Numbered from the stretch's first letter, positions 2,321 to 19,226 are shown. The stretch: 24,000 nucleotides of DNA from [Ruminococcus] faecis JCM 15917 (GCA_001312505.1 BBDW01000008.1:18173-42172); one strand, 5' to 3'. Notes: generated by a model from the sequence alone, not told the origin. Numbers and translations: made by a program.

Positions 2321-2399
2321 AGATAACTTATGAAACGCAAGGAATGCATTTCATATTTTATAAAGCAGTACTTTTAAATGTATAAGGAGGACAAAAACT

Positions 2400-3707
2400 A
2401 TGAAAAAGAAAGTATTGAGCGCACTTTTAGTAGCAGCAATGTCAGTATCTGTACTTGCAGGATGCGGAAGCAAATCTGACAACAACACTGATGCAAAGAA
2501 TGATGCATCACAGGAAAACACACTGAGCGTATGGTGCTGGGATCCTAACTTCAACGTTTATGCAATGAAACAGGCAGAGGCAATCTACCAGAAAGATCAC
2601 CCGGATTTCAAACTGGATATTCAGGAAAAAGTATATTCAGATATTGAGACAGCTCTGATCACAGCAGCTGAAGCTGATGATTACAGCACATTACCGGACA
2701 TCTTCCTGATGCAGGATTATTCCTTCCATAAGAACGTAGCAAACTATCCTGGAATCTTTACAGAACTTACAGATTCAGGAATCACTTTCTCAGATTTCTC
2801 TGCAGGAAAGTTAGCTGACTCTACAGTAGACGGAAAGAACTATGGCGTTCCATTTGATAACGGTGCTACAATCATGGCAATCCGTAAAGACATGGTTGAG
2901 GCAGCCGGACTTACAGTAGATGATTTCAAAGACACAACATGGTCAGATTTCATGGAAAAAGCTAAAAAAGTAGTTGAGACAAACAACGTTCCAATGCTTA
3001 CAAGCTCAGGCGGATCTGAGATTATCATTGAGATGCTTCAGTCAGCAGGTGCTTCTCCGATGGTAGACGGAAAAGTTGACTTAGTTAATAACAAAGCTCT
3101 CAAGAAAGCAATCGAGACATACAAACAGCTCATTGATGAAGGAATCATGGTTGATTATACTGACTGGGATCAGTACATTGCTTCTATGAACAAGGGAACA
3201 GCAGCTGGTGTTATCCAGGGATGCTGGATCATGTCTTCTATCCAGGCAGCTGATGATCAGGCTGGAAACTGGTCTATCGTAAACATGCCTAAACTTGATG
3301 ATGTTGATGGTGCTACAAACTACGCAAACTGTGGTGGAGCAAGCTGGGCAGTATCTTCTAACTGCAAGAACACAGACCTTGCATATGACTTCCTTAAGAC
3401 AACATTCGGCGGAAGCGTAGAGTTATATGATGACCTTCTTCCAAACGCTGGAGCAATCGCAAGTTACTTACCGGCGGCTGAGTCAGATGTTTACAATGAG
3501 ACATCTGATTTCTACGCTGGACAGGCTGTATACAAAGACATCGTAGACTTCGCTGGAAAGGTTCCTGGAATCGATTATGGCGCATACTACTCAGATGTCA
3601 GAAGTGCATTAACAGATGCAATCACTAATGTTGTTCAGAATGGCGCTGATATTGACAGCGAGATCAAGAAAGCTCAGGATACAGTAGAATTTAATATTGG
3701 TGAGTAA
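2400..3707 (+). CDS. Sugar ABC transporter substrate-binding lipoprotein (family 1 extracellular solute-binding protein)
   Basis: The 435-aa protein has RBS AAGGAGG just upstream. Its signal peptide carries the lipobox VLAGC (MKKKVLSALLVAAMSVSVLAGCGSK). It is followed by two MalF/MalG-type permease genes. Confidence 0.9.
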   Translation: MKKKVLSALLVAAMSVSVLAGCGSKSDNNTDAKNDASQENTLSVWCWDPNFNVYAMKQAEAIYQKDHPDFKLDIQEKVYSDIETALITAAEADDYSTLPDIFLMQDYSFHKNVANYPGIFTELTDSGITFSDFSAGKLADSTVDGKNYGVPFDNGATIMAIRKDMVEAAGLTVDDFKDTTWSDFMEKAKKVVETNNVPMLTSSGGSEIIIEMLQSAGASPMVDGKVDLVNNKALKKAIETYKQLIDEGIMVDYTDWDQYIASMNKGTAAGVIQGCWIMSSIQAADDQAGNWSIVNMPKLDDVDGATNYANCGGASWAVSSNCKNTDLAYDFLKTTFGGSVELYDDLLPNAGAIASYLPAAESDVYNETSDFYAGQAVYKDIVDFAGKVPGIDYGAYYSDVRSALTDAITNVVQNGADIDSEIKKAQDTVEFNIGE

Positions 3708-3720
3708 TCATCAAAGATTA

Positions 3721-3768
3721 AAAACAGGACGTACCGGGAGTGCAGTATTGCGTTCCCGGTTCTGTTTT
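3721..3768 (+). terminator. Intercistronic stem-loop / partial terminator between the binding-protein and permease genes
   Basis: The inner stem pairs ACCGGGA (3733-3739) with TCCCGGT (3754-3760). The outer stem pairs AAAACAG (3721-3727) with CTGTTTT (3762-3768) and ends in a U-rich tail. Confidence 0.45.
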
Positions 3769-3779
3769 AGGAGAATAAT

Positions 3780-4660
3780 ATGGAAAAAAGAAAACAAAAT
3801 TAACTTTAGAGAAAAAGCATAATCTTACCGGATGGGTTTTTCTTCTTCCGGCAGCGATTTTAATATTCGTATTTTGTTTTTATCCAATGGCACAGGCACT
3901 TCTGTTGTCTTTTAGAAAGACAGGAGGAACATTTACCGGTTTATCAAATTATGCCAGAGTTTTCCAGGATAAAACATTTCAGCAATGCTTATTTAATACG
4001 TTCTTTTACTTTTTGATCCAGGTTCCGATCATGCTTGTTTTAGCACTAATCCTGGCACAGCTTTTGAATAGCCCAAAGATCAGAGGTAAAGGTATTTTTC
4101 GTACTTTGATTTTCCTTCCGTGTGCAACATCTCTTGTATCTTATTCTATGATATTTAAATCCTTGTTTGCTCCGGACGGAGTTGTGAACAGAGTACTTAC
4201 AGGAATTGGTTTATCTTCTGTTGACTGGTTTCAGAGTACATGGCCGGCACGCTGGGTAATCGTTATCGCCCTGATCTGGAGATGGACAGGATACAATATG
4301 GTATTCTATCTTGCAGGATTACAGAATATTGATTATTCCGTATATGAGGCAAGTTATATCGACGGGGGGGCAACACCATTTAAACAGTTTACAAAAATTA
4401 CGATTCCGCTTCTAAAGCCGACGATCCTTATGACAGCGATTATGTCAACTTCAGGAACACTGCAGTTGTTTGATGAGTCTATGAACCTGACTGCCGGAGG
4501 ACCTGGTAAGTCAACAATGACATTGGCACATTACATTTACAATATCTCCTTTGTGGAGACACCGAAATTTAATTATGCAGCAGCATTGTCTGTATGTATT
4601 CTTGTAATGGTAGCAATTCTGTCTGCAATTCAGATGAAAGTAGGTGACAAACGTGACTAA
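3780..4660 (+). pseudogene. Sugar ABC transporter permease (MalF/UgpA-type), with the start separated from the body by a -1 frameshift
   Basis: ATG 3780 follows RBS AGGAGA (3769-3774) but stops after 7 codons. The frame of ORF 3887..4660 is open from 3779 and already encodes the expected N-terminal TM segment (KLTLEKKHNLTGWVFLLPAAILIFVF) without any start codon. One missing base in 3782-3800 (the GG or an A run) rejoins them, giving 293 aa. The EAA loop reads YEASYIDGGATPFKQFTKITIP. Confidence 0.85.
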
Positions 4661-5459
4661 AATGAAATCAATAGTTTCCTATGCAGTTTTAATTATTGCA
4701 AGTTTTCTCTCTGCATTCCCACTGTACTACATGCTTTGTGGAGCAACAAATACAAGTATTGATGTTGTAAGGGGAAGACTGTATCCGGGTACTTATCTGG
4801 CAGAGAACTTTAAGACGCTGGTAGGCATGCAGAATCTTGGACTGGCAATGTTCAATTCATTCCGTAATGCAATTATTATTACATTTGTAGCATTACTCGT
4901 GTGTTCAATCGCCGGATACGGATTCGAGATTTATCACGATAAAGGGAAAGACATTTTAATGAATATTTTGCTTCTTGCATGATGCTTCCTTTTGTAGCGA
5001 TTATGATTCCATTGTTTAAGATGTTTACATCATGGGGGATTGGTTAATACATGGATCGCGCTTGCACTTCCAACTATTTCAACACCATTTATGATCATGC
5101 TGTTCAGACAGGCAGCCCGTTCTTTTCCACATGATATTATTGAAGCGGCAAGACTTGAGGGATTAAGTGAAGTGCAGATTTTCTTTAAGATGTTTATTCC
5201 TGTCATGAAATCTACTTATGGAGCAGCAATGACAGTAACTTTTATGAATGCATGGAACAATTACTTATGGCCAACGATCATTTTACAGGACAGCAAAGCA
5301 ATCACTATGCCGATGCTTGTAGCGAACCTGAAGAGTGGTTATAGTGTTGACTATGGTATGCTGATGCTTGGTGTATTGATTTGTACACTTCCGACTGCAA
5401 TCATCTTCCTGTGCTTACAGAAGAGCTTTGCAAACGGAATTACAGGAGCGGTAAAATAA
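4644..5459 (+). pseudogene. Sugar ABC transporter permease (MalG-type), with two compensating frameshifts about 57 nt apart
   Basis: ORFs 4644..4982 and 5040..5459 are in the same frame. The segment between them reads correctly only in another frame (MMLPFVAIMIPLFKMFTSWG). One base is missing near 4975-4979 and the G5 run at 5034-5038 has the wrong length. The EAA loop IIEAARLEGLSEVQIFFKMFIPV has canonical spacing. The likely true start is ATG 4662 (MKSIVSY) or GTG 4653. Confidence 0.85.
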
Positions 5460-5920
5460 TGCAGCAAAAGTATTGTATAAAACAGGAATGTTTAAGGAAG
5501 GCGCAAGGTGCCTTCCTTTTAGCACATAAAATGGGATTGCTTGAGGATCCTTCTATGGAGGGACTTGAAGCAAGAAGACAGAATCATAATGAAAAGCTGA
5601 AGATGATGGAGCAGGAGGAGAAGCTGTTCTATGGACCACGTTATTTTTCAGCACCAGCGTATTTGCAGTATGAGCTGACAAGACTGAAACTGGATTTTGT
5701 CCAGCCAAGTGAGGCGGTTCGAAGCACAGGTCTGTGTCCGGATGTCACAGAGCAGGAGAAGAAAGAATTTTACGAAAAAAATATGGATTTATTCGGTCGA
5801 TATTTCGGAGATCTCTTTACTTATGAAGAGGTAGAACAGATTATTGAAAAAAGATTACGGGAGGATGCATATGACAAGCTTATCGAAGACGTATTACGTG
5901 AGTTCGAAGACAGGAAATGA
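5459..5920 (+). CDS. Hypothetical 153-aa Glu/Lys/Leu-rich (probably helical) cytoplasmic protein
   Basis: Its ATG 5459 overlaps the permease stop (TAATG at 5457-5461). I recognise no family. Its last 50 nt overlap the next gene. I take the 5381-5458 part of the track ORF to be read-through inside the permease gene. Confidence 0.5.
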   Translation: MQQKYCIKQECLRKAQGAFLLAHKMGLLEDPSMEGLEARRQNHNEKLKMMEQEEKLFYGPRYFSAPAYLQYELTRLKLDFVQPSEAVRSTGLCPDVTEQEKKEFYEKNMDLFGRYFGDLFTYEEVEQIIEKRLREDAYDKLIEDVLREFEDRK

Positions 5921-7160
5921 TTCGAACGATGGACTGACAAGCGAAAGTGCATTCGCAAGTCTTTTTGCAATCAATCAGAGAAGTCTGCAGCCGGGAGATC
6001 ATGTATTACTTGAGCGTGGGAGCGTCTTTTGCGGACAGTATCTTCAGGTAACAGATAGCGGAAGAGAAGATGCACCGATCGTGATCGGTGCTTACGGAGA
6101 AGGCGATGCGCCGCGTATTGAGGCTTGTGGGCAGGGAATCTGGTATCAGAATTATGGAGCCCCCCCATTAGATTCACCAACTCATGTATATCGCGGGTAT
6201 GTATCTTCCGCAGTTCTACTGTATGATGCAGAATATATCATCGTAGAAGATCTGGAGATCACAAACGAAGCAGACAAAATTATCGGCGAGTACTATTCCC
6301 TTGGAGATAAGATGAATCGCACAGGTGTTGCTGTTGTAGCAAAAGACAAAGGTGTACGACACGGTATCACACTGCGTAATCTGCTGATCCATGATGTGAA
6401 TGGTAATGTGTACGATAAGCATATGAATAACGGTGGTATCTATATGACAGCACTTCAGCCGGAAGATGAAGAGATTACAGGAGTTGCCCATTATAAAGAT
6501 GTCACGGTTGAAGGATGCTTTGTGTATCAGGTGAGCCGTTGGGGAATTGCTGTCGGTTACACTTATGCACATGAGAAGTTCCAGGGAGCAGAACTGGACG
6601 AGGAGATCTTCTTGAAGTACGGACATGAGAAGATACGAATCTGCGATAATTATGTAAAGGCAGCAGGTGGTGACGGTATTACAGCCATGTATGCACTTCG
6701 TCCACTGGTGGAACATAATATGACAGATTCGATTGCCTGTGAGATAAATGATCGTATTTACTGTGAGCCGGGTAATCGATTGGGTAAGGTGGCAGCGGCT
6801 ATCTGGCCTTGGAAGTGTAAGGATGCACTGTTCCGGTATAATGAGAGTGTTGACACAAGACTAAATCAGGACGGTATGGCATATGATGCAGATTCCGGTG
6901 ATGGAACCGTTTATGAATATAATTACAGCAGACAGAATGAAGGTGGATGCGTGATGTTCTGCCTGCAGGAAGCAATTCATAATACGTTCCGCAATAATGT
7001 GAGTTTTGATGACCTTGGGGGAACGATCAGCCCGGCAGAGAACCCGGATGCACTGATCAAAGATAATACTTTCTATGTAAGAAAAGGCGTTCCGTTCGTT
7101 CGTAAAAATATGGACGGCGGTAATTACACGCTGGTGGACAATCAGGTTTTTGAATTATAG
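5871..7160 (+). CDS. Right-handed parallel beta-helix repeat protein, cytoplasmic, putative glycosidase (GH136-like candidate)
   Basis: RBS GGGAGGA (5859-5865) lies 5 nt before ATG 5871. There is no signal peptide. The N-terminus (YYVSSKTGNDSNDGLTSESAFASL..PGDHVLLERGSVF) is typical of beta-helix/pectate-lyase-fold proteins, with repetitive hydrophobic-Asn/Gly turns further on. It contains the C7 run at 6160-6166. Confidence 0.6.
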   Translation: MTSLSKTYYVSSKTGNDSNDGLTSESAFASLFAINQRSLQPGDHVLLERGSVFCGQYLQVTDSGREDAPIVIGAYGEGDAPRIEACGQGIWYQNYGAPPLDSPTHVYRGYVSSAVLLYDAEYIIVEDLEITNEADKIIGEYYSLGDKMNRTGVAVVAKDKGVRHGITLRNLLIHDVNGNVYDKHMNNGGIYMTALQPEDEEITGVAHYKDVTVEGCFVYQVSRWGIAVGYTYAHEKFQGAELDEEIFLKYGHEKIRICDNYVKAAGGDGITAMYALRPLVEHNMTDSIACEINDRIYCEPGNRLGKVAAAIWPWKCKDALFRYNESVDTRLNQDGMAYDADSGDGTVYEYNYSRQNEGGCVMFCLQEAIHNTFRNNVSFDDLGGTISPAENPDALIKDNTFYVRKGVPFVRKNMDGGNYTLVDNQVFEL

Positions 7161-7278
7161 AGGACTTTCAATGGACGTGATGTTTACAAACAGTTAAGTC
7201 AAACAAAAGATATCTCGGAAAATAAAAGCTTTACATTATAAAAAGTGTTATGATAAACTGAATATCAAATTGAAAATT

Positions 7279-8087: not shown

Positions 8088-8975
8088 CTATATTTCAGCA
8101 TGTTCCAATATATAATTCTTAAAATTCGTAACAACAGGTGCCTGATAAACATTCTTCAAAGTTGCCATGTAGAAGAGTCTTTCCCAGGACGGAGTTGCAA
8201 TCTCTATGATTGAAACCGGTAAAGAGGAAAGAATCGGCATTCGCGGCACAACTGCGATGCCGAATCCGGCACTGACTAATCCGGCAACACCCTGATCTTC
8301 TTCCATTGAGTAAGCAATCTGAGGGTATCCGCCACATTTTTCAAATAACTTGTCAATTACATGTCTTAAACCGCTTCGCTTAGAGAAAACGATGTGCGGA
8401 TACGTAAGCGCTTCTTTTAGATCAATCGAAGTTTTCCCGTCCAAAGGATGTCCTTCCGGTACGATCAGTACAAGCTCTTGTTTTGCGACCGGAATAAACT
8501 CAACGAGCGGTTCATTGTCCATCTTGGAACAAAATGCGATGTCGTATTTTCGCTCTTTTAATCCCTGGATCATGTCGGATGTGAGTCCGGTTGAACTATG
8601 AAAATAAAAATCGATTTTTGTTAGGCGTGGAATCCAAAAAACCTTTTACAAAGTTCGGAACAACTGCACTGCTGAGCGTACGGAGTTCAACAATATCGAT
8701 GCGGCCTTCCCCCCAAATCCGGTCATCTGCAGTTTATTGATGCTTGAATCCAGCATATCCAAAGCCTGTTCCACATCGACAAGAAAAGCCTGTCCACATT
8801 TTGTGAGGACAACGTTACGTCCATCTTTTTCAAAGAGTTTTACTCCGAGCTCACTTTCCAGAGATGAGATTGCATGACTTAAGCTTGGTTGAGTGATAGA
8901 AAGAATCTCCGCAGCCTTTGTGTAGTGTTCTAGATGAGCGAGAGTAACAAAATATCTAAGATGATAGAGATTCAT
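8088..8975 (-). pseudogene. LysR-family transcriptional regulator, with two compensating frameshifts
   Basis: The N-terminal HTH reads MNLYHLRYFVTLAHLEHYTKAAEILSITQPSLSHAISSLE. ORFs 8646..8975 and 8088..8573 are in the same frame. About 31 codons between the C6 run (8709-8714) and the T5 run (8615-8619) read sensibly only in another frame (EGRIDIVELRTLSSAVVPNFVKGFLDSTPNK). The total of 295 aa is normal for an LTTR. It is divergent from the 9402-14393 operon. Confidence 0.9.
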
Positions 8976-9036
8976 AAAGTCTGGTACCTTCCTTATAAAA
9001 ATTTGTATCTTCCCATTTAATCAGGTTCATTTTATA

Positions 9037-9194
9037 TCTATTTGGTAACTGTTCAGAGCCAAGCAAAATTTCATAAAACAGATGTAAAATGCTTGCATTT
9101 TTAAGACTGTTTTTGAAATTTTATTTGGCGGATACGCCACACCGACGAAATGCGTAGCATTTTGGAGGTTGGCTCTGAACAGTTACTCTATTTG
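9037..9194. mobile_element. MITE-like non-autonomous element: 142 bp, 18-bp perfect terminal inverted repeats, 8-bp target-site duplication
   Basis: GTAACTGTTCAGAGCCAA (9045-9062) is the exact reverse complement of TTGGCTCTGAACAGTTAC (9169-9186). The element is flanked directly by TCTATTTG at 9037-9044 and 9187-9194. It has no ORF. It lies in the lysR/operon intergenic region. Confidence 0.6.
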
Positions 9195-9295
9195 AGAGAT
9201 AAATACGCAATAATGCTTATTGATAATAATATCGTAACACGAAGTGTAAATAAAATCTATAAACAAAATGCATGGATCGTGATAGAATTACCAAT

Positions 9296-9324
9296 TTGTC
9301 ATTTATTTAACAAACAGATATAAT
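9296..9324 (+). promoter_or_regulatory. Sigma-A type promoter candidate for the 9402-14393 operon
   Basis: TTGTCA (9296-9301), a 17-nt spacer, then TATAAT (9319-9324), about 75 nt upstream of ATG 9402. Confidence 0.55.
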
Positions 9325-9401
9325 AAAAATAGAAAAAAACAACAAGATTGAACAGAAAAATCCAATGGATTATATTCAATTTTTACAATGGAGGAAGAAT
9401 T

Positions 9402-10238
9402 ATGTCAAAGAAAAACCCAATCACAGTAAGTTCATGGACACTTGGAGATCAGTGCAAATTTGAAGATCGTGTAATCGCTGCAAAGGAAGCAGGATATGAA
9501 GGAATCGGTCTTCGCGCAGAGACTTATGTTGATGCATTGAATGAAGGACTTCATGATGAAGACATTCTTGCAATTCTTGACAAACATGATATGAAAGTAA
9601 CAGAGGTAGAGTACATTGTTCAGTGGTGTGAGGAACATCGTTCTTATGAGCAGAAATACAAAGAGCAGATGTGTTTCCATATGTGCGAACTCTTTGGAGT
9701 AGGCCACATCAACTGTGGACTGATGGAAAATTATTCTGTTGAGTACACAGCACAGAAATTAAAAGAACTTTGCCAGAGAGCAGGAAAATACATCATTGGT
9801 GTTGAGCCGATGCCATACAGCGGAATTCCGGATCTTAAGAAAGGTTGGGAAGTTGTAAAAGCTTCTGGATGCGACAACGCAATGCTCATTCTTGATACAT
9901 GGCACTGGGTAAGAGCAGATCAGCCATACGATATCCTTACACCGGAGATTGCCAAGAAAGTTATTTCTATCCAGATTAATGATGCTTATAAAAGACCATA
10001 TGCAGCACCTATTTTAAGAGATGAGTCTATGCATGATCGTCTTGCACCGGGAACAGGAGCAAAAGATACAGCAGGATTTGTTAAGATGATTAAAGACGCA
10101 GGAGTTGATCCGAAGGTTGTTGGTGTAGAAGTTATTTCTGATGCAATCCTTGGAAAAGGACTGAAAGAAGCAGCTGCTTATACATATGAAAACACAGAGA
10201 AAGTATTAAAAGAAGTTTGGCCAGAGTTGGTAGACTAA
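9402..10238 (+). CDS. Sugar phosphate isomerase/epimerase family TIM-barrel protein (xylose-isomerase-like fold; dehydratase/isomerase)
   Basis: RBS GGAGGA (9390-9395) lies 6 nt before ATG 9402. The 278-aa protein has features typical of this family: ITVSSWTLG, AGYEGIGLR and ILDTWHW (a His-containing metal-site-like motif). The 9348 TTG start in the track is unlikely. Confidence 0.65.
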   Translation: MSKKNPITVSSWTLGDQCKFEDRVIAAKEAGYEGIGLRAETYVDALNEGLHDEDILAILDKHDMKVTEVEYIVQWCEEHRSYEQKYKEQMCFHMCELFGVGHINCGLMENYSVEYTAQKLKELCQRAGKYIIGVEPMPYSGIPDLKKGWEVVKASGCDNAMLILDTWHWVRADQPYDILTPEIAKKVISIQINDAYKRPYAAPILRDESMHDRLAPGTGAKDTAGFVKMIKDAGVDPKVVGVEVISDAILGKGLKEAAAYTYENTEKVLKEVWPELVD

Positions 10239-10273
10239 TTTGAAAAACAGATGATGCCAAAGAGAGAGGTAAA

Positions 10274-12247
10274 ATGATGAAATTCAAAAATATGTTTTCT
10301 CCGATTCAGATTGGACCTATGACTGTTAAAAATCGTTTTGTGGTTCCACCGATGGGAAATAATTTCGCAAATTCAGACGGAACATGGAGTGACGAATCTG
10401 TGGCTTACTATGGTGAGCGTGCAAAAGGTCAGTTTGGTCTGATCACAATTGAAGCGACTGTAGTACATAAAGGAGCGAAGGGCGGTCCTAAGAAACCATG
10501 TCTTTATGATGACAACAGCATTGAAAGTCTGAAGAAAATCACAGATGCCTGTCATGCAGAAGGTGCAAAGGTATCTATCCAGCTTCAGAATGCAGGACCG
10601 GAAGGAAATGCAAAGAATGCAGGAGCACCGATCCAGGCAGCTACAGCAATCGCATCAGCAGATGGAAGAGACATTCCTGAAGAAGTATCTACAGAAAAAG
10701 TGTATGAGCTTGTAAAAGGATATGGTGAAGCAGCAGAACGTGCAATGAAAGGTGGAGCAGATGCAGTAGAGATCCATATGGCGCACGGCTATCTTGTAAA
10801 TTCATTTATGTCACCAAGAACAAATAAGCGTGTCGATGAGTTTGGCGGAAACTTTGAGAACAGAATGAGATTTTCACGTCTCATCATTGAAGAAGTAAAG
10901 AAGAAAACAGAAGGAAAGATTGCTGTTCTTGCACGTATTAACAGTACAGAAGACATGTTTGGCGGACTTGATAATCACGATATGTGTGCAGTTGCTTCTT
11001 ATTTAGAAGATTGCGGGATTGATGGTCTTCACGTATCCCGTGCAGTACATTTAAAAGATGAGTATATGTGGGCTCCGACAGGAATTCACGGCGGATTCTC
11101 AGCAGAGCTTGTTGCAAATATCAAGAAATGTGTTTCTATTCCGGTTATTACAGTCGGAAGATATACAGAACCACAGTTTGCAGAACAGATCATTAAAATG
11201 GGAAATGCAGATTTAGTAGCATTTGGACGTCAGTCACTTGCAGATCCGCACACACCACAGAAAGCAATGGAAGAAAGACTGGAAGATCTTACACCATGTA
11301 TCGCCTGTCTTCAGGGCTGTGTTGCTAATATGTATGCAGGTAAACCAATCTGTTGTCTTGTAAATCCAGTACTCGGACATGAAAAAGAAGGACTTCCGAA
11401 GGCTGAGAAGGCGAAAAAAGTTTACGTGATCGGTGGTGGTGTGGCAGGTATGTGTGCTGCATTTACAGCGAAGAGACGCGGACATGATGTAACATTATTT
11501 GAAGCTACAGATAAGCTTGGCGGTAATATGAGACTGGCTGCATATCCACCAGGAAAAGGTGATATCACAGGTATGATCAGAAGTTACATTGTAAAATGTG
11601 AAAAAGCCGGAGTTAATATCAAGATGAATACAAAAGTAACTGCACAGATGTTGAAAGAAGATACACCGGATGCAGTGATCCTTGCAACAGGAGCTGAGAC
11701 TTTAGTACTTCCATTTATCAAAGGTATTGAAAATCCGGATATCGTCTATGGTGTTGACTGCCTGGAAGGAACACGCTCGGTAGGACATAAAGTCTTAGTT
11801 GTTGGTGGCGGTATGGTAGGTGCAGAGACAGCAGACTTCTTAGCAGAACAGGGACATGAAGTAGCCATTATCGAAATGAGAGACGCGATCGGACCGGATG
11901 TGATCCATGAGCACAGAATGTTTCTTATGGAAGCATTTGAGAAATATGGCATCAAACAGATTACAAGTGCAGCTGTATCAGAGATCTTCTCAGATGGCGT
12001 AAGTTACAAAAATGCAGCAGATAAATCAGACGAGACGATCTACGAGGCAAGAGGATTCGACACAGTTGTTCTCTCTATGGGATTCAGCTCACGTTATACA
12101 CACCGTGATGGACAGAATGTAGTTTATGACTTTGCAGAAGAATTAAAAGACATCGTACCAGAAGTCCACATGGTAGGTGACGCAGTAAGAGCACGCCGTG
12201 CACTGGATGCCACAAAAGAAGCATATGAGGTTGCATTGAATTTATAA
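10274..12247 (+). CDS. FMN/FAD/[4Fe-4S] NADH:flavin oxidoreductase of the 2-enoate reductase / 2,4-dienoyl-CoA reductase (FadH, BaiH, FldZ-like) family
   Basis: The 657-aa protein has an OYE-type N-terminal barrel (FSPIQIGPMTVKNRFVVPPM; HMAHGYLVNSFMSPRTNKRVDEFGG). It has a Cys cluster, CIACLQGCVANMYAGKPICC. It has two dinucleotide folds, VIGGGVAGMCAA and VVGGGMVGAETA. Confidence 0.85.
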   Translation: MMKFKNMFSPIQIGPMTVKNRFVVPPMGNNFANSDGTWSDESVAYYGERAKGQFGLITIEATVVHKGAKGGPKKPCLYDDNSIESLKKITDACHAEGAKVSIQLQNAGPEGNAKNAGAPIQAATAIASADGRDIPEEVSTEKVYELVKGYGEAAERAMKGGADAVEIHMAHGYLVNSFMSPRTNKRVDEFGGNFENRMRFSRLIIEEVKKKTEGKIAVLARINSTEDMFGGLDNHDMCAVASYLEDCGIDGLHVSRAVHLKDEYMWAPTGIHGGFSAELVANIKKCVSIPVITVGRYTEPQFAEQIIKMGNADLVAFGRQSLADPHTPQKAMEERLEDLTPCIACLQGCVANMYAGKPICCLVNPVLGHEKEGLPKAEKAKKVYVIGGGVAGMCAAFTAKRRGHDVTLFEATDKLGGNMRLAAYPPGKGDITGMIRSYIVKCEKAGVNIKMNTKVTAQMLKEDTPDAVILATGAETLVLPFIKGIENPDIVYGVDCLEGTRSVGHKVLVVGGGMVGAETADFLAEQGHEVAIIEMRDAIGPDVIHEHRMFLMEAFEKYGIKQITSAAVSEIFSDGVSYKNAADKSDETIYEARGFDTVVLSMGFSSRYTHRDGQNVVYDFAEELKDIVPEVHMVGDAVRARRALDATKEAYEVALNL

Positions 12248-12275
12248 ATGAAATTATATCAGGAGGATTAGAATC

Positions 12276-13151
12276 ATGGAAAAAAGAATTTCTGGACACA
12301 CAGGCTTAATGGGATTATTTGGATCACCGGTTGGACATTCAGGATCACCGGCAATGTACAACTTCAGTTTCCAGCATGACGGATTAGATTATGCATATCT
12401 GGCATTTGATGTAACAGAGGAAGAAATGCCAAAAGCATTTGAGGCAATTCGTTTATTCAACATGCGCGCTGGTAACTTTACAATGCCATGTAAAAATATT
12501 GCAGCAAAGTTAGTTGACAAACTTTCTCCGGCAGCAGAGATCATCGGAGCATGTAACGCATTTGTAAATGATAATGGTGTGATCACAGGATACATTACAG
12601 ATGGTGTTGGATTTGTTAAAAATCTCGAGATCAATGGTGTATCTGTAAAAGATAAAAAGATTGTTGTCCTTGGTGCCGGTGGAGCCGCTACAGCTATTCA
12701 GGTTCAGTTAGCATTGGACGGAGCAAAAGAAGTTAACATTTTCAATATAAAAGATAAATTCTACGAAAGAGCAGAAGGAACAAAGGCTAAATTAGCAGAG
12801 AAGTGTCCGGACTGTGTTGTTACTGTAGAGGATCTTGCTGATAAGGCTAAACTGGAAGAAGAAATTAAAACTTGTGATATTCTTATCAATACAACGATTA
12901 TGGGAATGAAACCACACGAGGATGTAACTCTGGTTGACAAATCTTTATTCCGTAAGGATCTTGTTGTTGCAGATACTGTATACAATCCAGAGAAGACAAA
13001 GATGATCCTTGAAGCAGAAGAAGCAGGATGTAAAGCAATCGGTGGCGCAGGAATGCTTCTGCAGCAGGGGGCAGTTAACTACGAACTGTTTGTTGGAAAA
13101 GAGATGCCACTTGCTGAGTATCAGGAATTTCAGAAGGCTCAGGCAAAATAA
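12276..13151 (+). CDS. Shikimate/quinate 5-dehydrogenase family protein (AroE/YdiB-like)
   Basis: The 291-aa protein carries GSPVGHSGSPAMYN, NFTMPCK, GYITDGVGF and LGAGGAATAI, which correspond to the conserved AroE substrate and NAD(P) motifs. RBS AGGAGG lies upstream. Confidence 0.85.
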   Translation: MEKRISGHTGLMGLFGSPVGHSGSPAMYNFSFQHDGLDYAYLAFDVTEEEMPKAFEAIRLFNMRAGNFTMPCKNIAAKLVDKLSPAAEIIGACNAFVNDNGVITGYITDGVGFVKNLEINGVSVKDKKIVVLGAGGAATAIQVQLALDGAKEVNIFNIKDKFYERAEGTKAKLAEKCPDCVVTVEDLADKAKLEEEIKTCDILINTTIMGMKPHEDVTLVDKSLFRKDLVVADTVYNPEKTKMILEAEEAGCKAIGGAGMLLQQGAVNYELFVGKEMPLAEYQEFQKAQAK

Positions 13152-13178
13152 TTACATTCACAAAAGGAGAATGATGGA

Positions 13179-14393
13179 ATGAGAGCAAAGAAATATTTGT
13201 GGTCTATCCTTTGTGTATATTTTTGCTATTTAACACATGGTATCCAGGCTATCATTTTAAGTCAGAACAACGTAAACTTTGCAAAACAGTGGGGGGGATT
13301 CAATATGGCAGACCCACAGTCAGCAGCATATGCAGCAGGTCTTGCAGCGGTAAGTACAGCAGTTGCATGGACAGGCTTTGGTAAATTCGTCAGCGTCTGG
13401 ATTGGTGGAGAGATTTCGGATCATGTAGGACGTAAAAAATTAATGATCGGTGGAGCAGCATTATATATTCTATGCTTCCTTGGATTCTTATTTACAAAAA
13501 GTGCATTAGTTGCTTCTGTATGTGGATTTGTTTCAGGAGTTGCAACATCCGGTTTCTGGGATGCATCAGGATATCCGGCTGTACAGGAAGCTTATCCGGC
13601 AGCACCTGGATCTGCACTGATCGGGATCAAATTTTTTGTTTCTGTTTCCGGTATGATTTATCCATTCATGGTTGTTCATAATGCAAACAGCGGAAACTGG
13701 AAATTAAATGTTATTATCCCGCTTGTAATGTCAGTTGTTTGTCTGGTACTTGCAATTATTGCACCGTTTGCTTATGATGATCAGAAGAAAGCGTCAGAAG
13801 GAAAGAAAGACAAATCCGATAATGCAGTGCAGGCAGCAATGCTTGTAAAGCCAAATAAATTTATCGTATTTCTTGTAATGTTTTATGCGTTCCTTTGCAT
13901 GGCGATCATGTATGGCGCACAGCAGTATACAAAAGCATTTGGACTTTCCGTATGTGGACTTTCCGAGATTCAGGCAGCAGGTATGACTTCTATTTATACA
14001 ATCGGGTCTATCTGTGCAGTACTTTTCTGGGCGTTCATGATGGCAAAATTAAAATGGAACCCGTTAAAGGTTGTCCTTATTGATTCTATCTGTACAGCAG
14101 TGGCACTTGCGGGTGTACTGTTTATCCATCAGGTAGCAATCATTTACATCGCTATCGCAATGTTGGGATTCTTCGCAGCAGGAGGTGCTCTTCAGACAGG
14201 TCTTGCAGTTGTTCAGTTATTTAACCCAGGACCGAAGGGGGGGAGAAATACTGGTATTTATTACACATTTATGGGTGCGGCAAGCTACCTGATCCCAGTA
14301 GTGGCAGCACAGCTTACAAAATCATCTGGTGAGGCAAGTGCAGTATACAGCCTCATGATCATGCTGTTAGTATTTGCAATCTTGCTATTTTAA
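13179..14393 (+). CDS. MFS transporter
   Basis: The 404-aa protein has about 12 hydrophobic segments. The MFS loop 2-3 motif GGEISDHVGRKKLMI is present. RBS AAGGAGA (13164-13170). Confidence 0.85.
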   Translation: MRAKKYLWSILCVYFCYLTHGIQAIILSQNNVNFAKQWGGFNMADPQSAAYAAGLAAVSTAVAWTGFGKFVSVWIGGEISDHVGRKKLMIGGAALYILCFLGFLFTKSALVASVCGFVSGVATSGFWDASGYPAVQEAYPAAPGSALIGIKFFVSVSGMIYPFMVVHNANSGNWKLNVIIPLVMSVVCLVLAIIAPFAYDDQKKASEGKKDKSDNAVQAAMLVKPNKFIVFLVMFYAFLCMAIMYGAQQYTKAFGLSVCGLSEIQAAGMTSIYTIGSICAVLFWAFMMAKLKWNPLKVVLIDSICTAVALAGVLFIHQVAIIYIAIAMLGFFAAGGALQTGLAVVQLFNPGPKGGRNTGIYYTFMGAASYLIPVVAAQLTKSSGEASAVYSLMIMLLVFAILLF

Positions 14394-14601
14394 GTTCTCT
14401 CTACTTAGTAGCACAGCACAAAAAAATCTTCGGAAAAAGTGCATTATAGGAAGTAACATAGTAACAATCTCAATTCATACGAAAAAATGGACTGTTGTTC
14501 CAAAAGATGTTATCATCAAAAAGAATGCAGTCCTTTTTTTGAGATTAAATTGTTAAAAAATAGACACTTGTAAATCGAAAAATGAAGGAGAAGCTTAAAA
14601 G

Positions 14602-15972
14602 ATGAGTCCGAAAAGAACAAGAAAAGCCAACGAACTTCCCTATATTCCACTCGGCCCATTTCAGTGGCGTATTCCGGGAATTCATTATAAATTAGAATAT
14701 GTAGAATTTTTTCAAGGTCTGATCCTTGGCGCTACTGCGTTAAGTTCGATTCCGTATCTGACGGATAATCTTGGACTTCCGTATGAACTTGCATGGAGCT
14801 GCGTCATCATTGAAGTATTTATGTACATGCTTCATGGATGGTTAGGAGATCCGGTTGTCCCGGGATGGATCACACCGACATTACCATTTACACTGGCATA
14901 TTTAAATGGATTCCCAAAAGGACCGGAGCGTATTCAGGCAATGATTGCATTGCAGCTGCTTGTTGCATTTGTATTTATATTTATGGGAATTACCAAGCTT
15001 GCAGATAAATTCGTGAATGGTGTGCCGAATTCAATCAAAGGCGGTATTCTGATTGCAGCACCGATTACAGTATTGCAAGGACAGCTCTCAGATGGAAGCC
15101 AGCTGATGACTGCGCCAATCGCAACACTTTCCGGTACATTGTTACTTGCGTTTTTGAGTTTTTCACCGTTCTGTGAAAAGAACAGAGAAAAATATAAAAT
15201 ATTGGATATCATGGCAAAATATGGAAACTTATTCCCATATCTGATTGCTATGTTAGCAGGAGTATTGCTTGGAGAATTGTCAAAACCGGTTCTCGAACTT
15301 GGAAGACTCATCCGAATTCCTGACTTTAGTAATATTTTCCACACAGTCAGTATTTTTGCAGTCGGATTTCCACCGATTTCAAAATTTATAAGTGCAATTC
15401 CGTTGGCGTTGATCTGTTATGTACTTGCGTTTGGAGATTTTGTTACATCACAGACGTTGGTAGAGGAAGCACAGGACAGTAGAAGTGACGAATATATTGA
15501 CTTTAATTCAAGCAGATCAAACCTGATCAGTGGTCTTAGAAACCTGCTCCTTGCAATTTTTGCACCGTTCCCACCACTGGCAGGTCCGCTTTGGATTGGT
15601 ATGACCGTATCTGTTGCAATGCGTTATAAAGAAGGAAAGAAAGTGATGAAATCGCTGATCGGTGGAATGAGTTCTTTCCGTATGGCAACATTCATCAGTG
15701 TTATTTTAGTGCCGATCGTGTCATTCATGAAACCAATCATGGGCGTGGGTTCTGCGATCACTTTGTTATTCCAGGCATATGTATGTGCAAGAATCGGTAT
15801 GGATTATTGTAAGACGAGTACAGATAAAAGTATTGCCGGAGTAATGGCAGCAGTGCTTGCATTTAAAGGTTCCGGATGGGCTTTGCTTGTAGGTTTTGCA
15901 ATGAACATTTTACTGTCTAATATGGAATTTCAGAAGAGGAAATTAGAGATTTCGGAGACAGAACAAAATTAA
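14602..15972 (+). CDS. Uncharacterised polytopic membrane protein (putative permease)
   Basis: The 456-aa protein has RBS GAAGGAG (14584-14590) and at least 10 hydrophobic segments. I can name no family with confidence. It has its own terminator and a 208-nt upstream gap. Confidence 0.6.
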   Translation: MSPKRTRKANELPYIPLGPFQWRIPGIHYKLEYVEFFQGLILGATALSSIPYLTDNLGLPYELAWSCVIIEVFMYMLHGWLGDPVVPGWITPTLPFTLAYLNGFPKGPERIQAMIALQLLVAFVFIFMGITKLADKFVNGVPNSIKGGILIAAPITVLQGQLSDGSQLMTAPIATLSGTLLLAFLSFSPFCEKNREKYKILDIMAKYGNLFPYLIAMLAGVLLGELSKPVLELGRLIRIPDFSNIFHTVSIFAVGFPPISKFISAIPLALICYVLAFGDFVTSQTLVEEAQDSRSDEYIDFNSSRSNLISGLRNLLLAIFAPFPPLAGPLWIGMTVSVAMRYKEGKKVMKSLIGGMSSFRMATFISVILVPIVSFMKPIMGVGSAITLLFQAYVCARIGMDYCKTSTDKSIAGVMAAVLAFKGSGWALLVGFAMNILLSNMEFQKRKLEISETEQN

Positions 15973-15990
15973 TAAAAGAATTCAACAGGA

Positions 15991-16038
15991 GCAGTTAGTC
16001 TGGAAAATAGATTAGCTGCTTTTTGTGTAAAAAGCAGC
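15991..16038. terminator. Bidirectional intrinsic terminator between convergent genes
   Basis: On the + strand, GCAGTTAGTCT (15991-16001) pairs with AGATTAGCTGC (16009-16019), including two G-U pairs, and is followed by TTTTT. An overlapping hairpin, GCTGCTTTTT (16015-16024) with AAAAAGCAGC (16029-16038), serves the minus-strand gene that ends at 16040. Confidence 0.7.
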
Positions 16039-16039
16039 C

Positions 16040-16739
16040 TTAAACAAACGTAAGCACCGCCTCTTTAATTTTCTGATAATGTGATTCAGAAATCACTATT
16101 TTCCCATGCTCGGTTGCAATCAGTCCCTCCTCGTACAGACAGTCTAAATGTCTGTATAGCGTACGAAGCTGATGTTAAGTAGCTGAGCCAATTCTTCTTT
16201 TGTTGCTTTGACGATGACAGGAAATTTCTGATTTTCACAACATCGAAATAGATGAAGCAATAACCTGTCTTTTGTATTATTTAAAAGTAAATATTCATTT
16301 TCATTCAAAATTCGTTCAACTAATAAGGACAAATGCTTAAGGCTGAGCACTCCGAATTCAGGATCTCTTGAAAGTTGATCCAGATATGTTTGTATAGGAA
16401 TACGAATATAGGAACAATCAGAAGCACAGCGAATCGTTGCTGTGTGTCTGTTTAATGTAGGATGTACAGCTTCAAATAAGCCGTAGATTTCTATAGGTTT
16501 GCAGGCTACGGCAGTCAATAATTTTCCGGAAGGACTGTATTTTTCAGAATAACAGGCGCCTTTTAAAAGTATATAGATATATTTCGAAGGCATATCATTA
16601 TAAATAAGACAATCATTCTTGGAGGCATGCTCAATTTTTAGCCCTGCCTGATCAAGTAAATCTAAAAAAATTTAGATTCTAAACTTTTTTCTAAAAATTC
16701 TTCTGCATATTCAACAATTTTTTTTAGATCTCCGGACAT
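16040..16739 (-). pseudogene. Crp/Fnr-family transcriptional regulator, split by two -1 frameshifts
   Basis: Three frames join to give 233 aa. The N-terminal piece is MSGDLKKIVEYAEEFLEKSLESKFF, and its junction needs A8 rather than A7 at 16664-16670 (it then continues LDLLDQAGLKIEHASKNDCLIYNDM). The middle piece is track ORF 16144..16593, the cNMP-binding-like domain. After a missing base near 16161-16168 comes the C-terminal HTH, TLYRHLDCLYEEGLIATEHGKIVISESHYQKIKEAVLTFV. It is divergent from yjjI. Confidence 0.8.
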
Positions 16740-16760
16740 TTTTTGTTCCTTTCTTCTAGA

Positions 16761-16780
16761 AACATGCCAAATGGCATTTT
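16761..16780. promoter_or_regulatory. Candidate regulator-binding palindrome (5-N4-5) in the Crp/Fnr - yjjI divergent region
   Basis: ATGCC-AAAT-GGCAT (16764-16777) sits inside the imperfect 20-bp dyad AAACATGCCAAATGGCATTT. Its centre is about 31 nt upstream of a TATCAT -10-like hexamer (16801-16806), which gives roughly class-II activator geometry. Confidence 0.3.
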
Positions 16781-16873
16781 TTTAAATTCCATCCTAATGA
16801 TATCATAAAGGCCATAAGAGGACAATAAATTTCAACCGTTGTTTCAGTATTGAATTATTTGGGAGGTATTGCC

Positions 16874-18400
16874 ATGTTAAACATTACTAATTTAAAAGAA
16901 ACTGTGGAATCGATCATAACAAATAGTGCACTTACGCATGAGCAGGCTATGATCGCGTTATCGGATGTGCCATTGTCTTATGTGGAATTTTTCGAAACTA
17001 CAAATGAGTTTAGAGAATTGTGTGAGGCGGGATGTTTGTGCAGAATGGCAGAAGGAAATGTCACATATCAACCGAGATATATTCTTCCGGATTATGAAAA
17101 ATTAATGAGAGAAGGATGCAAATTCTTACGTTTGGATCCACCTAAAAATTTATTCGAAGCGATTCAGACATTGGAAATCTTTTATCGTCATGTCCCATCA
17201 GTTACACATTATCCGGTTTACCTGGGATCTGTAGATAAATTGCTGGAACCATTCATGGATGATGAGAATGCATATAAGCTGATCAAAAGCTTCCTGATCT
17301 TTTTAGACCGCTCAATTCCGGATTCTTATTGCCACATGAACTTAGGACCTGAAGCAACAAGGGCAGGTGAGATGATTGTTGAGATTGAAACAGAATTGAA
17401 AAATGCAATTCCTTCAATCACACTGCTTTATGATCCGGATATAACACCAGATGATTTTGCAGAAAAATGTGTGATCTGTGCATTGAATTGTGCGAAGCCA
17501 AGTTTTGCAAATCACAAAATGTATCGCAAGCTGTATGATGGCGCTTATGGAATTGCAAGTTGCTACAACGCTTTACCGATAGCAGGCGGCTCCTTTACAT
17601 TATCTCGTGTTGTTTTAAGTAGACTGGCAGAACGTGCAAAAGACAGCGAGCATTTCCTGGAAGAGTTATTGCCGCGCGCAGTAAAAGAACTGTGTGGATA
17701 TATTGAAAATAAAATCGAATTTTTGGTAGAAAAGAGTCATTTCTTTAAATCAAATTTCTTAGTACAAGAGGGATTTGTTAAGGTTGAAAATTTCACCGGC
17801 ATGTTTGGTGTTGTCGGTATGAATGAGTGCGTAAACACATTGATGGAAAAAGAGCATAAATCTGACCGTTATGGATATAGCGAAGATGCAGATCAGCTGG
17901 CCATCCGAATCCTGGAAAAACTTCAGGAATGTGTAAACTCTTTTGAGAGTAAATATTGTGATTGCACGGAACATCATTTTCCATTACATGCTCAGGTTGG
18001 AATAGACAGTGACTATGATATCAGTCCGGGAGCACGTATTGCGATTGGATCGGAGCTTCCGCTGCATCAGCATTTACATCACTGTGCAAAAGTACATCAT
18101 TTCTTCCCATCAGGCGTGGGTGATATTTTCCCGTTTGATGAAACCGCAAAAAGAAATCCGGATGCTATTTTAGATTTGATTAAGGGCGGATTTAAGGAAG
18201 GAATGCAGTATTTTTCAACCTATTCGTCTGATTCAGATGTTATTAGAATCACAGGATATCTGGTGAAAAAGTCGGATATTGCTAAATTAGACAATGGTAT
18301 TGCAGTTCCTCAGGCAAATGCAAAATGGGGGGGATATTACGAAGTGAAAAACAGTAAGATCTATGAAAGAAAGGTGCGGAGCTTAAATGGCGATCGTTAA
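16874..18400 (+). CDS. yjjI: YjjI-family glycine radical enzyme (DUF3029/TIGR04040-like), substrate unknown
   Basis: RBS GGGAGG (16861-16866) lies 7 nt before ATG 16874. The 508-aa product is close to E. coli YjjI at about 516 aa. A C-terminal glycyl-radical finger reads SDSDVIRITGYLVKK. The candidate thiyl Cys is in GIASCYNALPIAGG. The next gene is a dedicated activase. Confidence 0.8.
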   Translation: MLNITNLKETVESIITNSALTHEQAMIALSDVPLSYVEFFETTNEFRELCEAGCLCRMAEGNVTYQPRYILPDYEKLMREGCKFLRLDPPKNLFEAIQTLEIFYRHVPSVTHYPVYLGSVDKLLEPFMDDENAYKLIKSFLIFLDRSIPDSYCHMNLGPEATRAGEMIVEIETELKNAIPSITLLYDPDITPDDFAEKCVICALNCAKPSFANHKMYRKLYDGAYGIASCYNALPIAGGSFTLSRVVLSRLAERAKDSEHFLEELLPRAVKELCGYIENKIEFLVEKSHFFKSNFLVQEGFVKVENFTGMFGVVGMNECVNTLMEKEHKSDRYGYSEDADQLAIRILEKLQECVNSFESKYCDCTEHHFPLHAQVGIDSDYDISPGARIAIGSELPLHQHLHHCAKVHHFFPSGVGDIFPFDETAKRNPDAILDLIKGGFKEGMQYFSTYSSDSDVIRITGYLVKKSDIAKLDNGIAVPQANAKWGGYYEVKNSKIYERKVRSLNGDR

Positions 18401-19226
18401 TAAAATTATTCATAGCAGTGTTGTAGACGGACCGGGAAACAGAGCAGCTGTTTTTTTACAAAAATGTAATTTTAAGTGTTCTTACTGTCACAATCCGGAG
18501 ACAATCGGGCAGTGTGTTCAATGTGGTGCATGTGTCGAGAAGTGTCCAGCCAAAGCACTTTCCCTGAAAGACGGAAAGATTGTATGGGATGAAGATAAAT
18601 GTTGTGAATGTGATACTTGTATCCATGTATGTCCTCATATGTCTTCGCCACGAGTGAAAGATTATACAGCGGAACAGATTATGGAACAGATTGCACCGGA
18701 TCTTCCATATATAAGAGGAATTACGGTGTCAGGCGGTGAGTGTACACTGCAAAGAGATTTCCTGGCTGAGTTATTTTTATTAGCGAAGCAGCAAGGATTA
18801 TCAACATTAATTGATAGTAATGGCAGTTATGATTTTTCACAGGATGCAGAGCTTATGAATGTTTGTGATGGTGTGATGTTGGATGTTAAAGCATTTGATT
18901 GCGATGCACATAAGAAATTAACCGGTATGAGTAATGAGCAGGTTCTGAAAAATGCAGTTTACTTAGCTGAACATGGAAAGCTTGAGGAGATTCGTACAGT
19001 TATAGTACCGGATCAACTGCCGAATGAAGATACTGTTTTTCAAATCACAAAATTGCTGAAGCCGTATTTAGATAAAAAACAAATTCGATATAAAATAATC
19101 GCTTATCGTCAGTTTGGAGTTCGTTCTCCATATGATCAGATTTTCAGGACTCCATCATCCAATGAAATGATGAAATACAAAAAAATCGCGGAGGATAATG
19201 GATTTGAAAATATTATTTTGATATAG
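18387..19226 (+). CDS. yjjW: Glycyl-radical enzyme activating radical-SAM protein (YjjW family)
   Basis: It overlaps yjjI by 14 nt. It has the radical-SAM motif CNFKCSYCHNPE, two ferredoxin-type clusters (CVQCGACVEKCP and CCECDTCIHVCP) and the SAM-binding motif GITVSGGECT. Confidence 0.9.
   Translation: MAIVNKIIHSSVVDGPGNRAAVFLQKCNFKCSYCHNPETIGQCVQCGACVEKCPAKALSLKDGKIVWDEDKCCECDTCIHVCPHMSSPRVKDYTAEQIMEQIAPDLPYIRGITVSGGECTLQRDFLAELFLLAKQQGLSTLIDSNGSYDFSQDAELMNVCDGVMLDVKAFDCDAHKKLTGMSNEQVLKNAVYLAEHGKLEEIRTVIVPDQLPNEDTVFQITKLLKPYLDKKQIRYKIIAYRQFGVRSPYDQIFRTPSSNEMMKYKKIAEDNGFENIILI

Follow-up and report, generated by a model that had tools for sequence, protein, structure and literature searches.

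What does a gut anaerobe do with a shikimate dehydrogenase homologue that is encoded in one row with a triosephosphate isomerase (TIM) barrel protein, a flavin- and iron-sulphur-dependent reductase and a carrier, behind a strong promoter and opposite a LysR-type regulator? The question is raised by a stretch of 24,000 nucleotides from [Ruminococcus] faecis JCM 15917, referred to here in its entirety as the window, which corresponds to positions 18173–42172 of contig C8 of a Lachnospiraceae genome (3.26 Mb, 45 contigs, 88% complete). A first interpretation made from the DNA alone, the sequence-only reading, had taken the row for a non-biosynthetic operon that acts on an imported hydroaromatic acid, and had held that the responsible genes were not defined. 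On all sequence-level criteria the cassette is an orthologue of the qui2 operon of Listeria monocytogenes, and it is very probably a qui2-type shikimate/quinate operon. What the reductase in its midst may contribute is the subject of most of what follows.

The open reading frame (ORF) listing and translation place four genes on the + strand, encoding the TIM barrel protein (9402–10238), the flavoprotein (10274–12247), the AroE-like dehydrogenase (12276–13151) and a major facilitator superfamily (MFS) carrier (13179–14393), with gaps of 35, 28 and 27 nt and no terminator-like site predicted between them. The LysR-type gene (8088–8975) lies divergently on the − strand. The close spacing of the four genes, the strong promoter and the divergent regulator described by the sequence-only reading were all confirmed in their coordinates, with the regulator gene split as assembled, and its gene families agree with the Pfam and NCBIfam matches; only the gene order in its title was wrong, the dehydrogenase being third and not first.

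L. monocytogenes converts quinate and shikimate to protocatechuate by means of two operons, qui1 and qui2, both of which contain genes marked as uncharacterised by the authors; protocatechuate accumulates in the cultures, the published model needs no reductase, and the authors are left with the puzzle that Listeria makes protocatechuate though it cannot use it (bioRxiv 10.1101/2025.04.08.647683). Using the exact Lmo2234 protein (the 2G0W sequence) we found the Listeria locus (L095), in which a LysR gene lies opposite genes for a TIM barrel protein, a 636-residue Oxidored_FMN/Pyr_redox_2 protein, a shikimate dehydrogenase and two MFS carriers in succession. In Clostridioides difficile the row is composed in the same way. 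This orthology upholds the earlier proposal that the operon is not biosynthetic and serves an imported hydroaromatic acid, shikimate or quinate, with its own regulator and carrier, while the statement that the genes were not defined no longer stands, as QuiC2, SdhD and QuiR/QuiR2 have been studied in Listeria.

The cassette is also widely, though patchily, conserved. A pattern search over one genome per GTDB species returned 324 relatives of the TIM barrel protein, and the best 80 were used (at least 77% identical in the TIM barrel; some metagenome-assembled genome (MAG) labels of the 'cleanbin' type look unreliable); together with the window they make up the 81 loci counted below. Dorea, Mediterraneibacter, Mordavella, Faecalicatena, Extibacter, Blautia, Anaerobutyricum and Streptococcus are among the taxa represented, as are Eubacterium aggregans, Fusobacterium, Megasphaera and Coriobacteriia, and the order LysR, TIM barrel, flavoprotein, dehydrogenase, MFS recurs in most of the best 80 loci from other species, an arrangement that is far beyond chance. 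The 81 loci hold a divergent LysR gene in 70 cases, a dehydrogenase in 69, the flavoprotein and an MFS carrier in 65 each, a type I dehydroquinase in 27 and a tripartite ATP-independent periplasmic (TRAP) transporter in 13, the other recurrent neighbours being housekeeping genes. Frequently the dehydroquinase belongs to a further module that also includes a YdiB-clade dehydrogenase and another flavin reductase (28–34% identity), which is the qui1 pattern. Inositol or bile-acid genes, whose consistent company would have pointed to a different pathway, do not recur: no bai or iol genes do so in the 81 loci. Within Lachnospiraceae, sampled as one genome for each of 400 genera, 15 genomes carry the TIM barrel gene and a congeneric genome does not; the cassette is thus present in ~4% of the sampled genera. 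Its distribution is patchy, and identities that stay very high from phylum to phylum point to horizontal spread.

The first gene of the row, preceded by a GGAGG ribosome-binding site at 9390–9394, encodes a xylose-isomerase-like TIM barrel of 278 residues (PF01261) that we assign to the QuiC2 class of 3-dehydroshikimate dehydratases by homology. It matches PDB entry 2G0W (Lmo2234 of L. monocytogenes) with an E-value of 1.2e-94 and is 56% identical to Listeria QuiC2 over 275/278 residues, in agreement with its earlier grouping with such dehydratases. QuiC2 represents a separate class among the dehydroshikimate dehydratases (bioRxiv 10.1101/2025.04.08.647683, citing Xue et al. 2020). Comparison with the AsbF/QuiC enzymes and inosose dehydratases gave a close relationship to QuiC2 and only remote ones to QuiC1 and IolI: the curated QuiC model (NF042435) gave 20.7 bits against a cut-off of 1200, 5HMQ gave an E-value of 0.077, and the match to IolI (1I60) was weak (1.4e-4). 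An IolE/IolI-type function in inositol metabolism was rejected on that remote 1I60 match and the lack of iol genes in the 81 loci. As the putatively aromatising dehydratase is both the first and the best-conserved gene of the cassette, the earlier suggestion that ene-reduction replaces the protocatechuate branch does not hold in that form.

The dehydrogenase (291 residues; PF08501) exceeds the cut-off of NF009200 (457.6 bits against 432), is 57% identical to Listeria SdhD (Lmo2236), and carries the motifs HSGSP, MPCK, ITDG and LLQQG in its alignment to 3TNL; SdhD oxidises shikimate to dehydroshikimate (bioRxiv 10.1101/2025.04.08.647683). In a maximum-likelihood tree of 106 dehydrogenases the window enzyme falls, with support of 98/88, in an SdhD clade that holds Listeria SdhD, the C. 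difficile enzyme and all in-operon dehydrogenases. The sister clade contains E. coli YdiB, Listeria Lmo0490 and every dehydroquinase-adjacent dehydrogenase, and E. coli AroE is a remote outgroup, which places the AroE-like protein within SdhD, outside the YdiB clade and far from AroE. Assignment as a biosynthetic AroE was rejected on this distance and on TIGR00507 (198 bits, cut-off 200.2), and assignment as YdiB on NF009390 (271 bits against 349) and on the position in the sister SdhD clade. The host genome has just one further shikimate dehydrogenase (C20:21269-22814), which belongs to the SdhD clade too, is 57% identical to that of the window and adjoins a shikimate kinase gene, so that biosynthesis in the host lineage seems to rely on an SdhD-type enzyme in place of a canonical AroE.

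The divergent regulator (PF00126 and PF03466) belongs by similarity to the QuiR/QuiR2 family. Its N-terminal part is 72% and its C-terminal part 56% identical to Listeria Lmo2233 (QuiR2), and the best PDB match of its effector domain is 5TED (Lmo0488, QuiR; 3.8e-38). In Listeria, QuiR (Lmo0488) activates both qui operons with shikimate as co-inducer, and Lmo2233 (QuiR2), whose gene is divergent from qui2, is a repressor that responds to protocatechuate (bioRxiv 10.1101/2025.04.08.647683). As assembled, the window gene consists of two ORFs, one for the helix-turn-helix domain (8646–8975) and one for the effector domain (8088–8573). The nearest public relative (L008), a Hadza-gut MAG labelled Mediterraneibacter with 96% DNA identity over the cassette, differs from it by 2 bp missing in the window at 8615 and 2 bp extra in a C run at 8709. 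The break is probably an assembly artefact, because G/C homopolymers are anomalous throughout the host genome, which has 2154 runs of 7, 292 of 8 and only 1657 of 4, whereas related loci amounting to 0.7 Mb contain 4 runs of 7 and 1883 of 4. Runs of G4 in the relative become G7 here throughout the window. The anomaly, seen for example at 1278, 1498, 7390, 8709, 13291 and 14241, probably explains the window's many split genes and lowers the completeness estimate.

The second gene encodes a protein of 657 residues that joins an OYE (old yellow enzyme)-type flavin mononucleotide (FMN) domain (PF00724) to an FAD/NAD(P)H domain (PF07992), and is predicted to be an FMN/[4Fe-4S]/FAD NAD(P)H-dependent reductase of the FadH/2-enoate reductase family. 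It has HMAHGY at residue 168, CIACLQGC-x11-C at 342 and GxGxxG at 387 and 511, and so shows the HxxHGY and CxxCxxxC-x(11)-C patterns and the two dinucleotide folds that define the family; HMAHGY comprises the substrate-binding His pair and proton-donor Tyr of OYE, and CIACLQGC-x11-C is the [4Fe-4S] motif of FadH-type enzymes. The closest solved relatives are 2-naphthoyl-CoA reductase (6QKG, 4.4e-87) and FadH (1PS9, 2.2e-79), and Listeria Lmo2235, in the same position between dehydratase and dehydrogenase, is 62% identical over 651 residues. The protein lies under every NCBIfam equivalog cut-off, the best model being BaiCD (NF041087), and a bile-acid BaiCD/BaiH function was rejected on this score (525.2 bits against 825) and the lack of bai genes among the conserved neighbours. 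In the searchable literature we found no gene assignment for lmo2235, for lmo0489 or for a reductive shikimate/quinate pathway; the reaction of lmo0489, which is called uncharacterised, is said there to remain to be elucidated (PMC10269891).

The reductase gene is tightly coupled to the dehydratase gene. Its orthologue directly adjoins QuiC2 in 15/15 carriers of the one-per-genus sample, outside of which there were only two weaker matches, at 53% (in a 68%-complete genome) and 43%. Sixteen of the 81 loci have no copy: four are cut by contig ends, and the other 12, from streptococci and Eremococcus, have a short-chain dehydrogenase/reductase (SDR) in its position, with no orthologue of the window flavoenzyme found elsewhere in one such SDR-bearing genome. 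Three of these 12 (L054, L055 and L067) end with a protein of 968 residues, and the Pfam architecture of the L054 copy is OYE-FMN_bind-FAD_binding_2, which we take to be that of cytoplasmic NADH:enoate (acrylate, fumarate, cinnamate) reductases. The streptococcal variant (L054:10892-11749 and 16243-19149; likewise L055 and L067) runs from a LysR gene opposite QuiC2 through the SDR and two MFS carriers to a YdiB-clade dehydrogenase, a type I dehydroquinase and the 968-residue reductase, and several streptococcal loci also encode an Abhydrolase_3 esterase that might free quinate from chlorogenate. A different setting is seen in three Coriobacteriia MAGs (L047, 5141–13828; L061; L066), where QuiC2 and the flavoenzyme come immediately after a NiFe hydrogenase operon (with genes for the small and large subunits, cytochrome b and the HycI protease); in L047 a second, divergent TIM-barrel gene stands between the two.

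Control of the cassette may also depend on the redox state. The top promoter match within 8900–16200 is a sigma-70-type TTGTCA-N17-TATAAT on the + strand (9296–9324; 11/12 positions; conserved across related loci), and its −35 hexamer and spacer are overlapped by a Rex-like operator, TTGTCATTTATTTAACAA (9296–9313, + strand), with two mismatches to TTGTTAANNNNTTAACAA. Sites with at most two mismatches occur twice in the window against 0.41 expected, and 37/83 loci have such a site in the 160 nt upstream of their TIM gene, against ~1% of random or shuffled windows. The sites differ in sequence and position between the Dorea, Blautia, Streptococcus, Anaerobutyricum, Alkalibaculum and Listeria groups, and the host genome encodes a Rex homologue. 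In Listeria, deletion of rex raises expression of lmo2234–lmo2238 by 7–23-fold in stationary phase and 2–5-fold in mid-log phase and also increases that of lmo0490 and lmo0491, and a predicted Rex operator, TTTGTGAAAATATTATCAAA, precedes lmo2234 (PMC8389512, S1 Text Tables A, B and E). For Rex control of the window operon this evidence is suggestive only, because counts from related loci are not independent and the left half of the site falls on the −35 hexamer.

The last gene of the row encodes a carrier of the YdiM/YdiN family (404 residues; PF07690), 28% identical to E. coli YdiM (8e-38), 26–27% to the two Listeria qui2 carriers and 33% to the carrier of a streptococcal locus; it forms one subfamily with the Listeria and streptococcal carriers and with E. 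coli YdiM/YdiN, whose genes flank ydiB-aroD. Downstream on the + strand, with no terminator predicted between 14393 and 14602, follows a gene for a polytopic membrane protein of 456 residues (14602–15972), homologous to the 'putative membrane protein PurT' of PDB 7TAK (5.7e-92), for which there was no Pfam or NCBIfam family match. In 29/81 loci, including those of Streptococcus, Eremococcus and Fusobacterium, the carrier gene is followed on its own strand by a PurT-like gene, and the window copy may be a fifth operon gene whose product carries a hydroaromatic or phenolic acid, not a purine.

These elements can be joined into one mechanism, in which uptake, shikimate oxidation and dehydration are assigned by orthology to characterised Listeria proteins and the ene-reduction is what we infer in addition. 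The YdiM/YdiN-type carrier, perhaps with the PurT-like protein, would import shikimate; the SdhD-type dehydrogenase would oxidise it to 3-dehydroshikimate, yielding NAD(P)H; and the QuiC2-type TIM barrel could aromatise 3-dehydroshikimate to protocatechuate. Quinate could enter by way of the genome's single type I dehydroquinase, no quinate dehydrogenase being assigned. The flavoenzyme would pass electrons from NAD(P)H through FAD and the cluster to FMN and would saturate a conjugated C=C bond, be it that of 3-dehydroshikimate (enone and enoate), of shikimate (enoate) or of a later enone, which would make the hydroaromatic acid an electron sink for a fermenting anaerobe. The QuiR-type regulator would control the divergent promoter, and the Rex-like operator over the −35 hexamer would link expression to the NADH/NAD+ ratio.

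Taken as a whole, a qui2 counterpart with an NADH-consuming reductive branch is the explanation that we consider probable, while the ene-reduction step as formulated here, which we draw from comparison, is put forward tentatively. Neither a UbiD-type (protocatechuate) decarboxylase nor a type II dehydroquinase was found in the 88%-complete host genome, and a reductive branch fits the physiology because the oxidative route alone would give NADH and an apparently unusable product. A reductive route is also known as chemistry. Whiting and Coggins are said to have found in the 1970s that lactobacilli form dihydroshikimate and 3,4-dihydroxycyclohexane-carboxylate, and Naranjo Pinta et al. reportedly observed in 2018, with 13C-quinate in human faecal cultures, that protocatechuate arises by an oxidative route and cyclohexane-carboxylate by a reductive one. 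A bolder formulation, somewhat more doubtful again, is that the Fe-S flavoenzyme is the missing 3-dehydroshikimate/shikimate ene-reductase and that the operon encodes a reductive route from shikimate or quinate to dihydroshikimate and hydroxycyclohexane-carboxylates, in which the SdhD-type dehydrogenase takes part and the QuiC2-type enzyme acts as ring dehydratase.

Several points weigh against a reductive branch and against the assignments beneath it. The substrates are assigned on 56–62% identity to the Listeria proteins; the published Listeria model works without a reductase, protocatechuate accumulating there; and co-occurrence and adjacency show coupling, not chemistry, so the flavoenzyme could use another compound or could restore NAD+ by way of an unrelated acceptor. 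As the window cassette is without a dehydroquinase, it is uncertain whether quinate is used. The Rex-like site is degenerate in its left half, where it coincides with the −35 hexamer, and its counts come from related loci that are not independent; lastly, the LysR gene is interrupted as assembled.

The alternative that survives best, which we regard as unlikely but worth serious consideration, is that the route is oxidative only, as in the Listeria model, with protocatechuate made and exported and the flavoprotein peripheral, for instance re-oxidising the NADH from SdhD with another acceptor or reducing protocatechuate-derived quinones. For Listeria, the activities of both QuiC2 and SdhD and a build-up of protocatechuate have been reported, and lmo2235 is annotated there as 'NADH oxidase'; the window counterparts of QuiC2 and SdhD are 56–57% identical to the Listeria enzymes. 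However, an NADH-producing route to a dead-end aromatic would bring no evident gain to a strict anaerobe in whose 88%-complete genome no UbiD-type decarboxylase was found, and a generic NADH oxidase would hardly be expected to adjoin QuiC2 in every carrier of the 400-genus sample or to be swapped for other reductase types in Streptococcus; Rex control, too, fits an NADH sink.

The opposite view, that of the sequence-only reading, is a purely reductive route in which a non-aromatising ring dehydratase leads to cyclohexane-carboxylate-type products and no protocatechuate is made in vivo. It draws on the conserved core pair of QuiC2 and reductase and on the products reported for lactobacilli, and it is chemically conceivable: an AsbF-type elimination of the 5-OH beside a 3-keto group could also work on a saturated 3-keto ring. 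We nevertheless judge it improbable, as the orthologous Listeria enzyme aromatises 3-dehydroshikimate and the cultures accumulate protocatechuate.

Salvage, with imported shikimate or quinate feeding aromatic amino-acid biosynthesis and the dehydratase and reductase disposing of the excess, is very unlikely. A chorismate-mutase/shikimate-kinase gene does lie beside LysR in 14 loci, the second SdhD-clade dehydrogenase of the genome adjoins a shikimate kinase, and partitioning between chorismate and protocatechuate is proposed by the Listeria authors (bioRxiv 10.1101/2025.04.08.647683), but the window cassette has no kinase, and salvage needs neither the dehydratase nor the Fe-S reductase, which are nonetheless the best-conserved pair. 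A different substrate class (inositol-type cyclitols, bile acids or steroids, other enoates), hinted at by BaiCD as the flavoprotein's top NCBIfam model and by the weak IolI match, is scarcely credible given the shortfall of the BaiCD score, the absence of bai and iol genes among the conserved neighbours and the recurrence there of a shikimate-family dehydrogenase and a type I dehydroquinase.

If the bolder formulation, with the flavoenzyme as the missing ene-reductase, is right, genes will have been found for a route known chemically from lactobacilli and faecal incubations, one that feeds host hippurate formation, and protocatechuate in aerobic Listeria would be an overflow formed when an oxygen-sensitive reductase is idle. 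Coffee, fruit and chlorogenic acids deliver gram amounts of quinate and shikimate to the colon, and the microbial products protocatechuate and cyclohexane-carboxylate, with hippurate formed subsequently, serve as markers for diet and metabolic health. The cassette marks gut commensals with a Listeria-type pathway, including Dorea, Mediterraneibacter, Faecalicatena, Blautia wexlerae, Anaerobutyricum hallii and others. This kind of operon is known from Listeria; the function of the reductase, which is tightly linked to the pathway and may be controlled by Rex, bears on whether the ring is aromatised or reduced in these bacteria, and could also explain why Listeria makes protocatechuate that it cannot use.

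The intergenic region and the flanks hold further features. Alignment of the intergenic regions of 17 related loci revealed a conserved box, CTATAAACAAAAT.CATGGAT (9255–9279, + strand), ~20–40 nt upstream of the −35 hexamer, which is a candidate LysR (QuiR-type) binding site. In the 5' leader (9346–9381, + strand) an inverted repeat, GATTGAAC-N-ATTCAAT, is followed by a T run; it is kept only in the Dorea/Mediterraneibacter/Mordavella group, a different palindrome (ACCGGA...TCCGGT) occupies its position in L026, and RNAalifold gave no consensus RNA structure for it. An insertion of 142 bp resembling a miniature inverted-repeat transposable element (9045–9186), with an 8-bp target duplication at 9037–9044 and 9187–9194, is missing from the 96%-identical locus L008, where the flanks join with a single 8-bp site. 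It sits upstream of the LysR-type box, the Rex-like box and the promoter, leaving the control elements of the operon intact, and moves the lysR start farther from them. A terminator-like hairpin (16014–16039; an 11-pair stem and then a T run) closes the gene row. Elsewhere in the window, 4.9 kb (2317–7176) with ATP-binding cassette (ABC) sugar transporter genes and a gene for a lacto-N-biosidase-like beta-helix protein (NF047897, 3e-92) are not at this position in L008, whose flanks are contiguous, and look like an insertion/deletion difference between close relatives.

Among known systems, the dehydratases of the aerobic qui/qsu/pca pathways (AsbF, QuiC1 and QsuB) have the fold family in common with the window TIM barrel, and by its orthology to QuiC2 presumably the reaction, but are only remotely similar in sequence; furthermore, the window cassette is not followed by ring-cleavage (beta-ketoadipate) genes, and has a reductase where aerobes have dioxygenases. 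FadH, the clostridial 2-enoate reductases, 2-naphthoyl-CoA reductase, BaiCD/BaiH and BilR have the same architecture and cofactor motifs as the window flavoprotein, which is at most ~30% identical to the solved members and lies below the curated equivalog cut-offs. The kind of reaction suggested for it has a precedent in Eggerthella lenta and Sutterella wadsworthensis, which reduce the shikimate enoate as an electron acceptor to hydroshikimate (Little et al., bioRxiv 10.1101/2022.12.26.521950). Unlike the window enzyme, a cytoplasmic OYE/FeS/FAD protein by its domains, those enzymes belong to a flavin reductase class surveyed as secreted and respiratory-like, and they work without a partner dehydrogenase and dehydratase.

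Listeria qui1 (QuiR lmo0488; lmo0489–lmo0491) and E. coli ydiM-ydiN-ydiB-aroD share their MFS subfamily with the window, their dehydrogenases forming the sister clade. Many relatives of the window carry a qui1-like module next to the cassette, whereas the window cassette has no dehydroquinase and its dehydrogenase is of the SdhD and not the YdiB clade; compared with Listeria, the window is without the qui1-type module (QuiR, YdiB, AroD), and the only dehydroquinase of the genome stands alone on another contig. The nearest counterpart is Listeria qui2 (lmo2233 opposite lmo2234–lmo2238). Here the host is a strictly anaerobic gut member of the Lachnospiraceae, and there is one MFS carrier in place of two, distantly related to them and with the PurT-like membrane protein behind it. 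Gene order and orientation are nevertheless as in the window, the identities for LysR, TIM barrel, flavoprotein, dehydrogenase and MFS carrier are 56–72%, 56%, 62%, 57% and 26–27%, respectively, and a Rex-type operator is predicted upstream in both.

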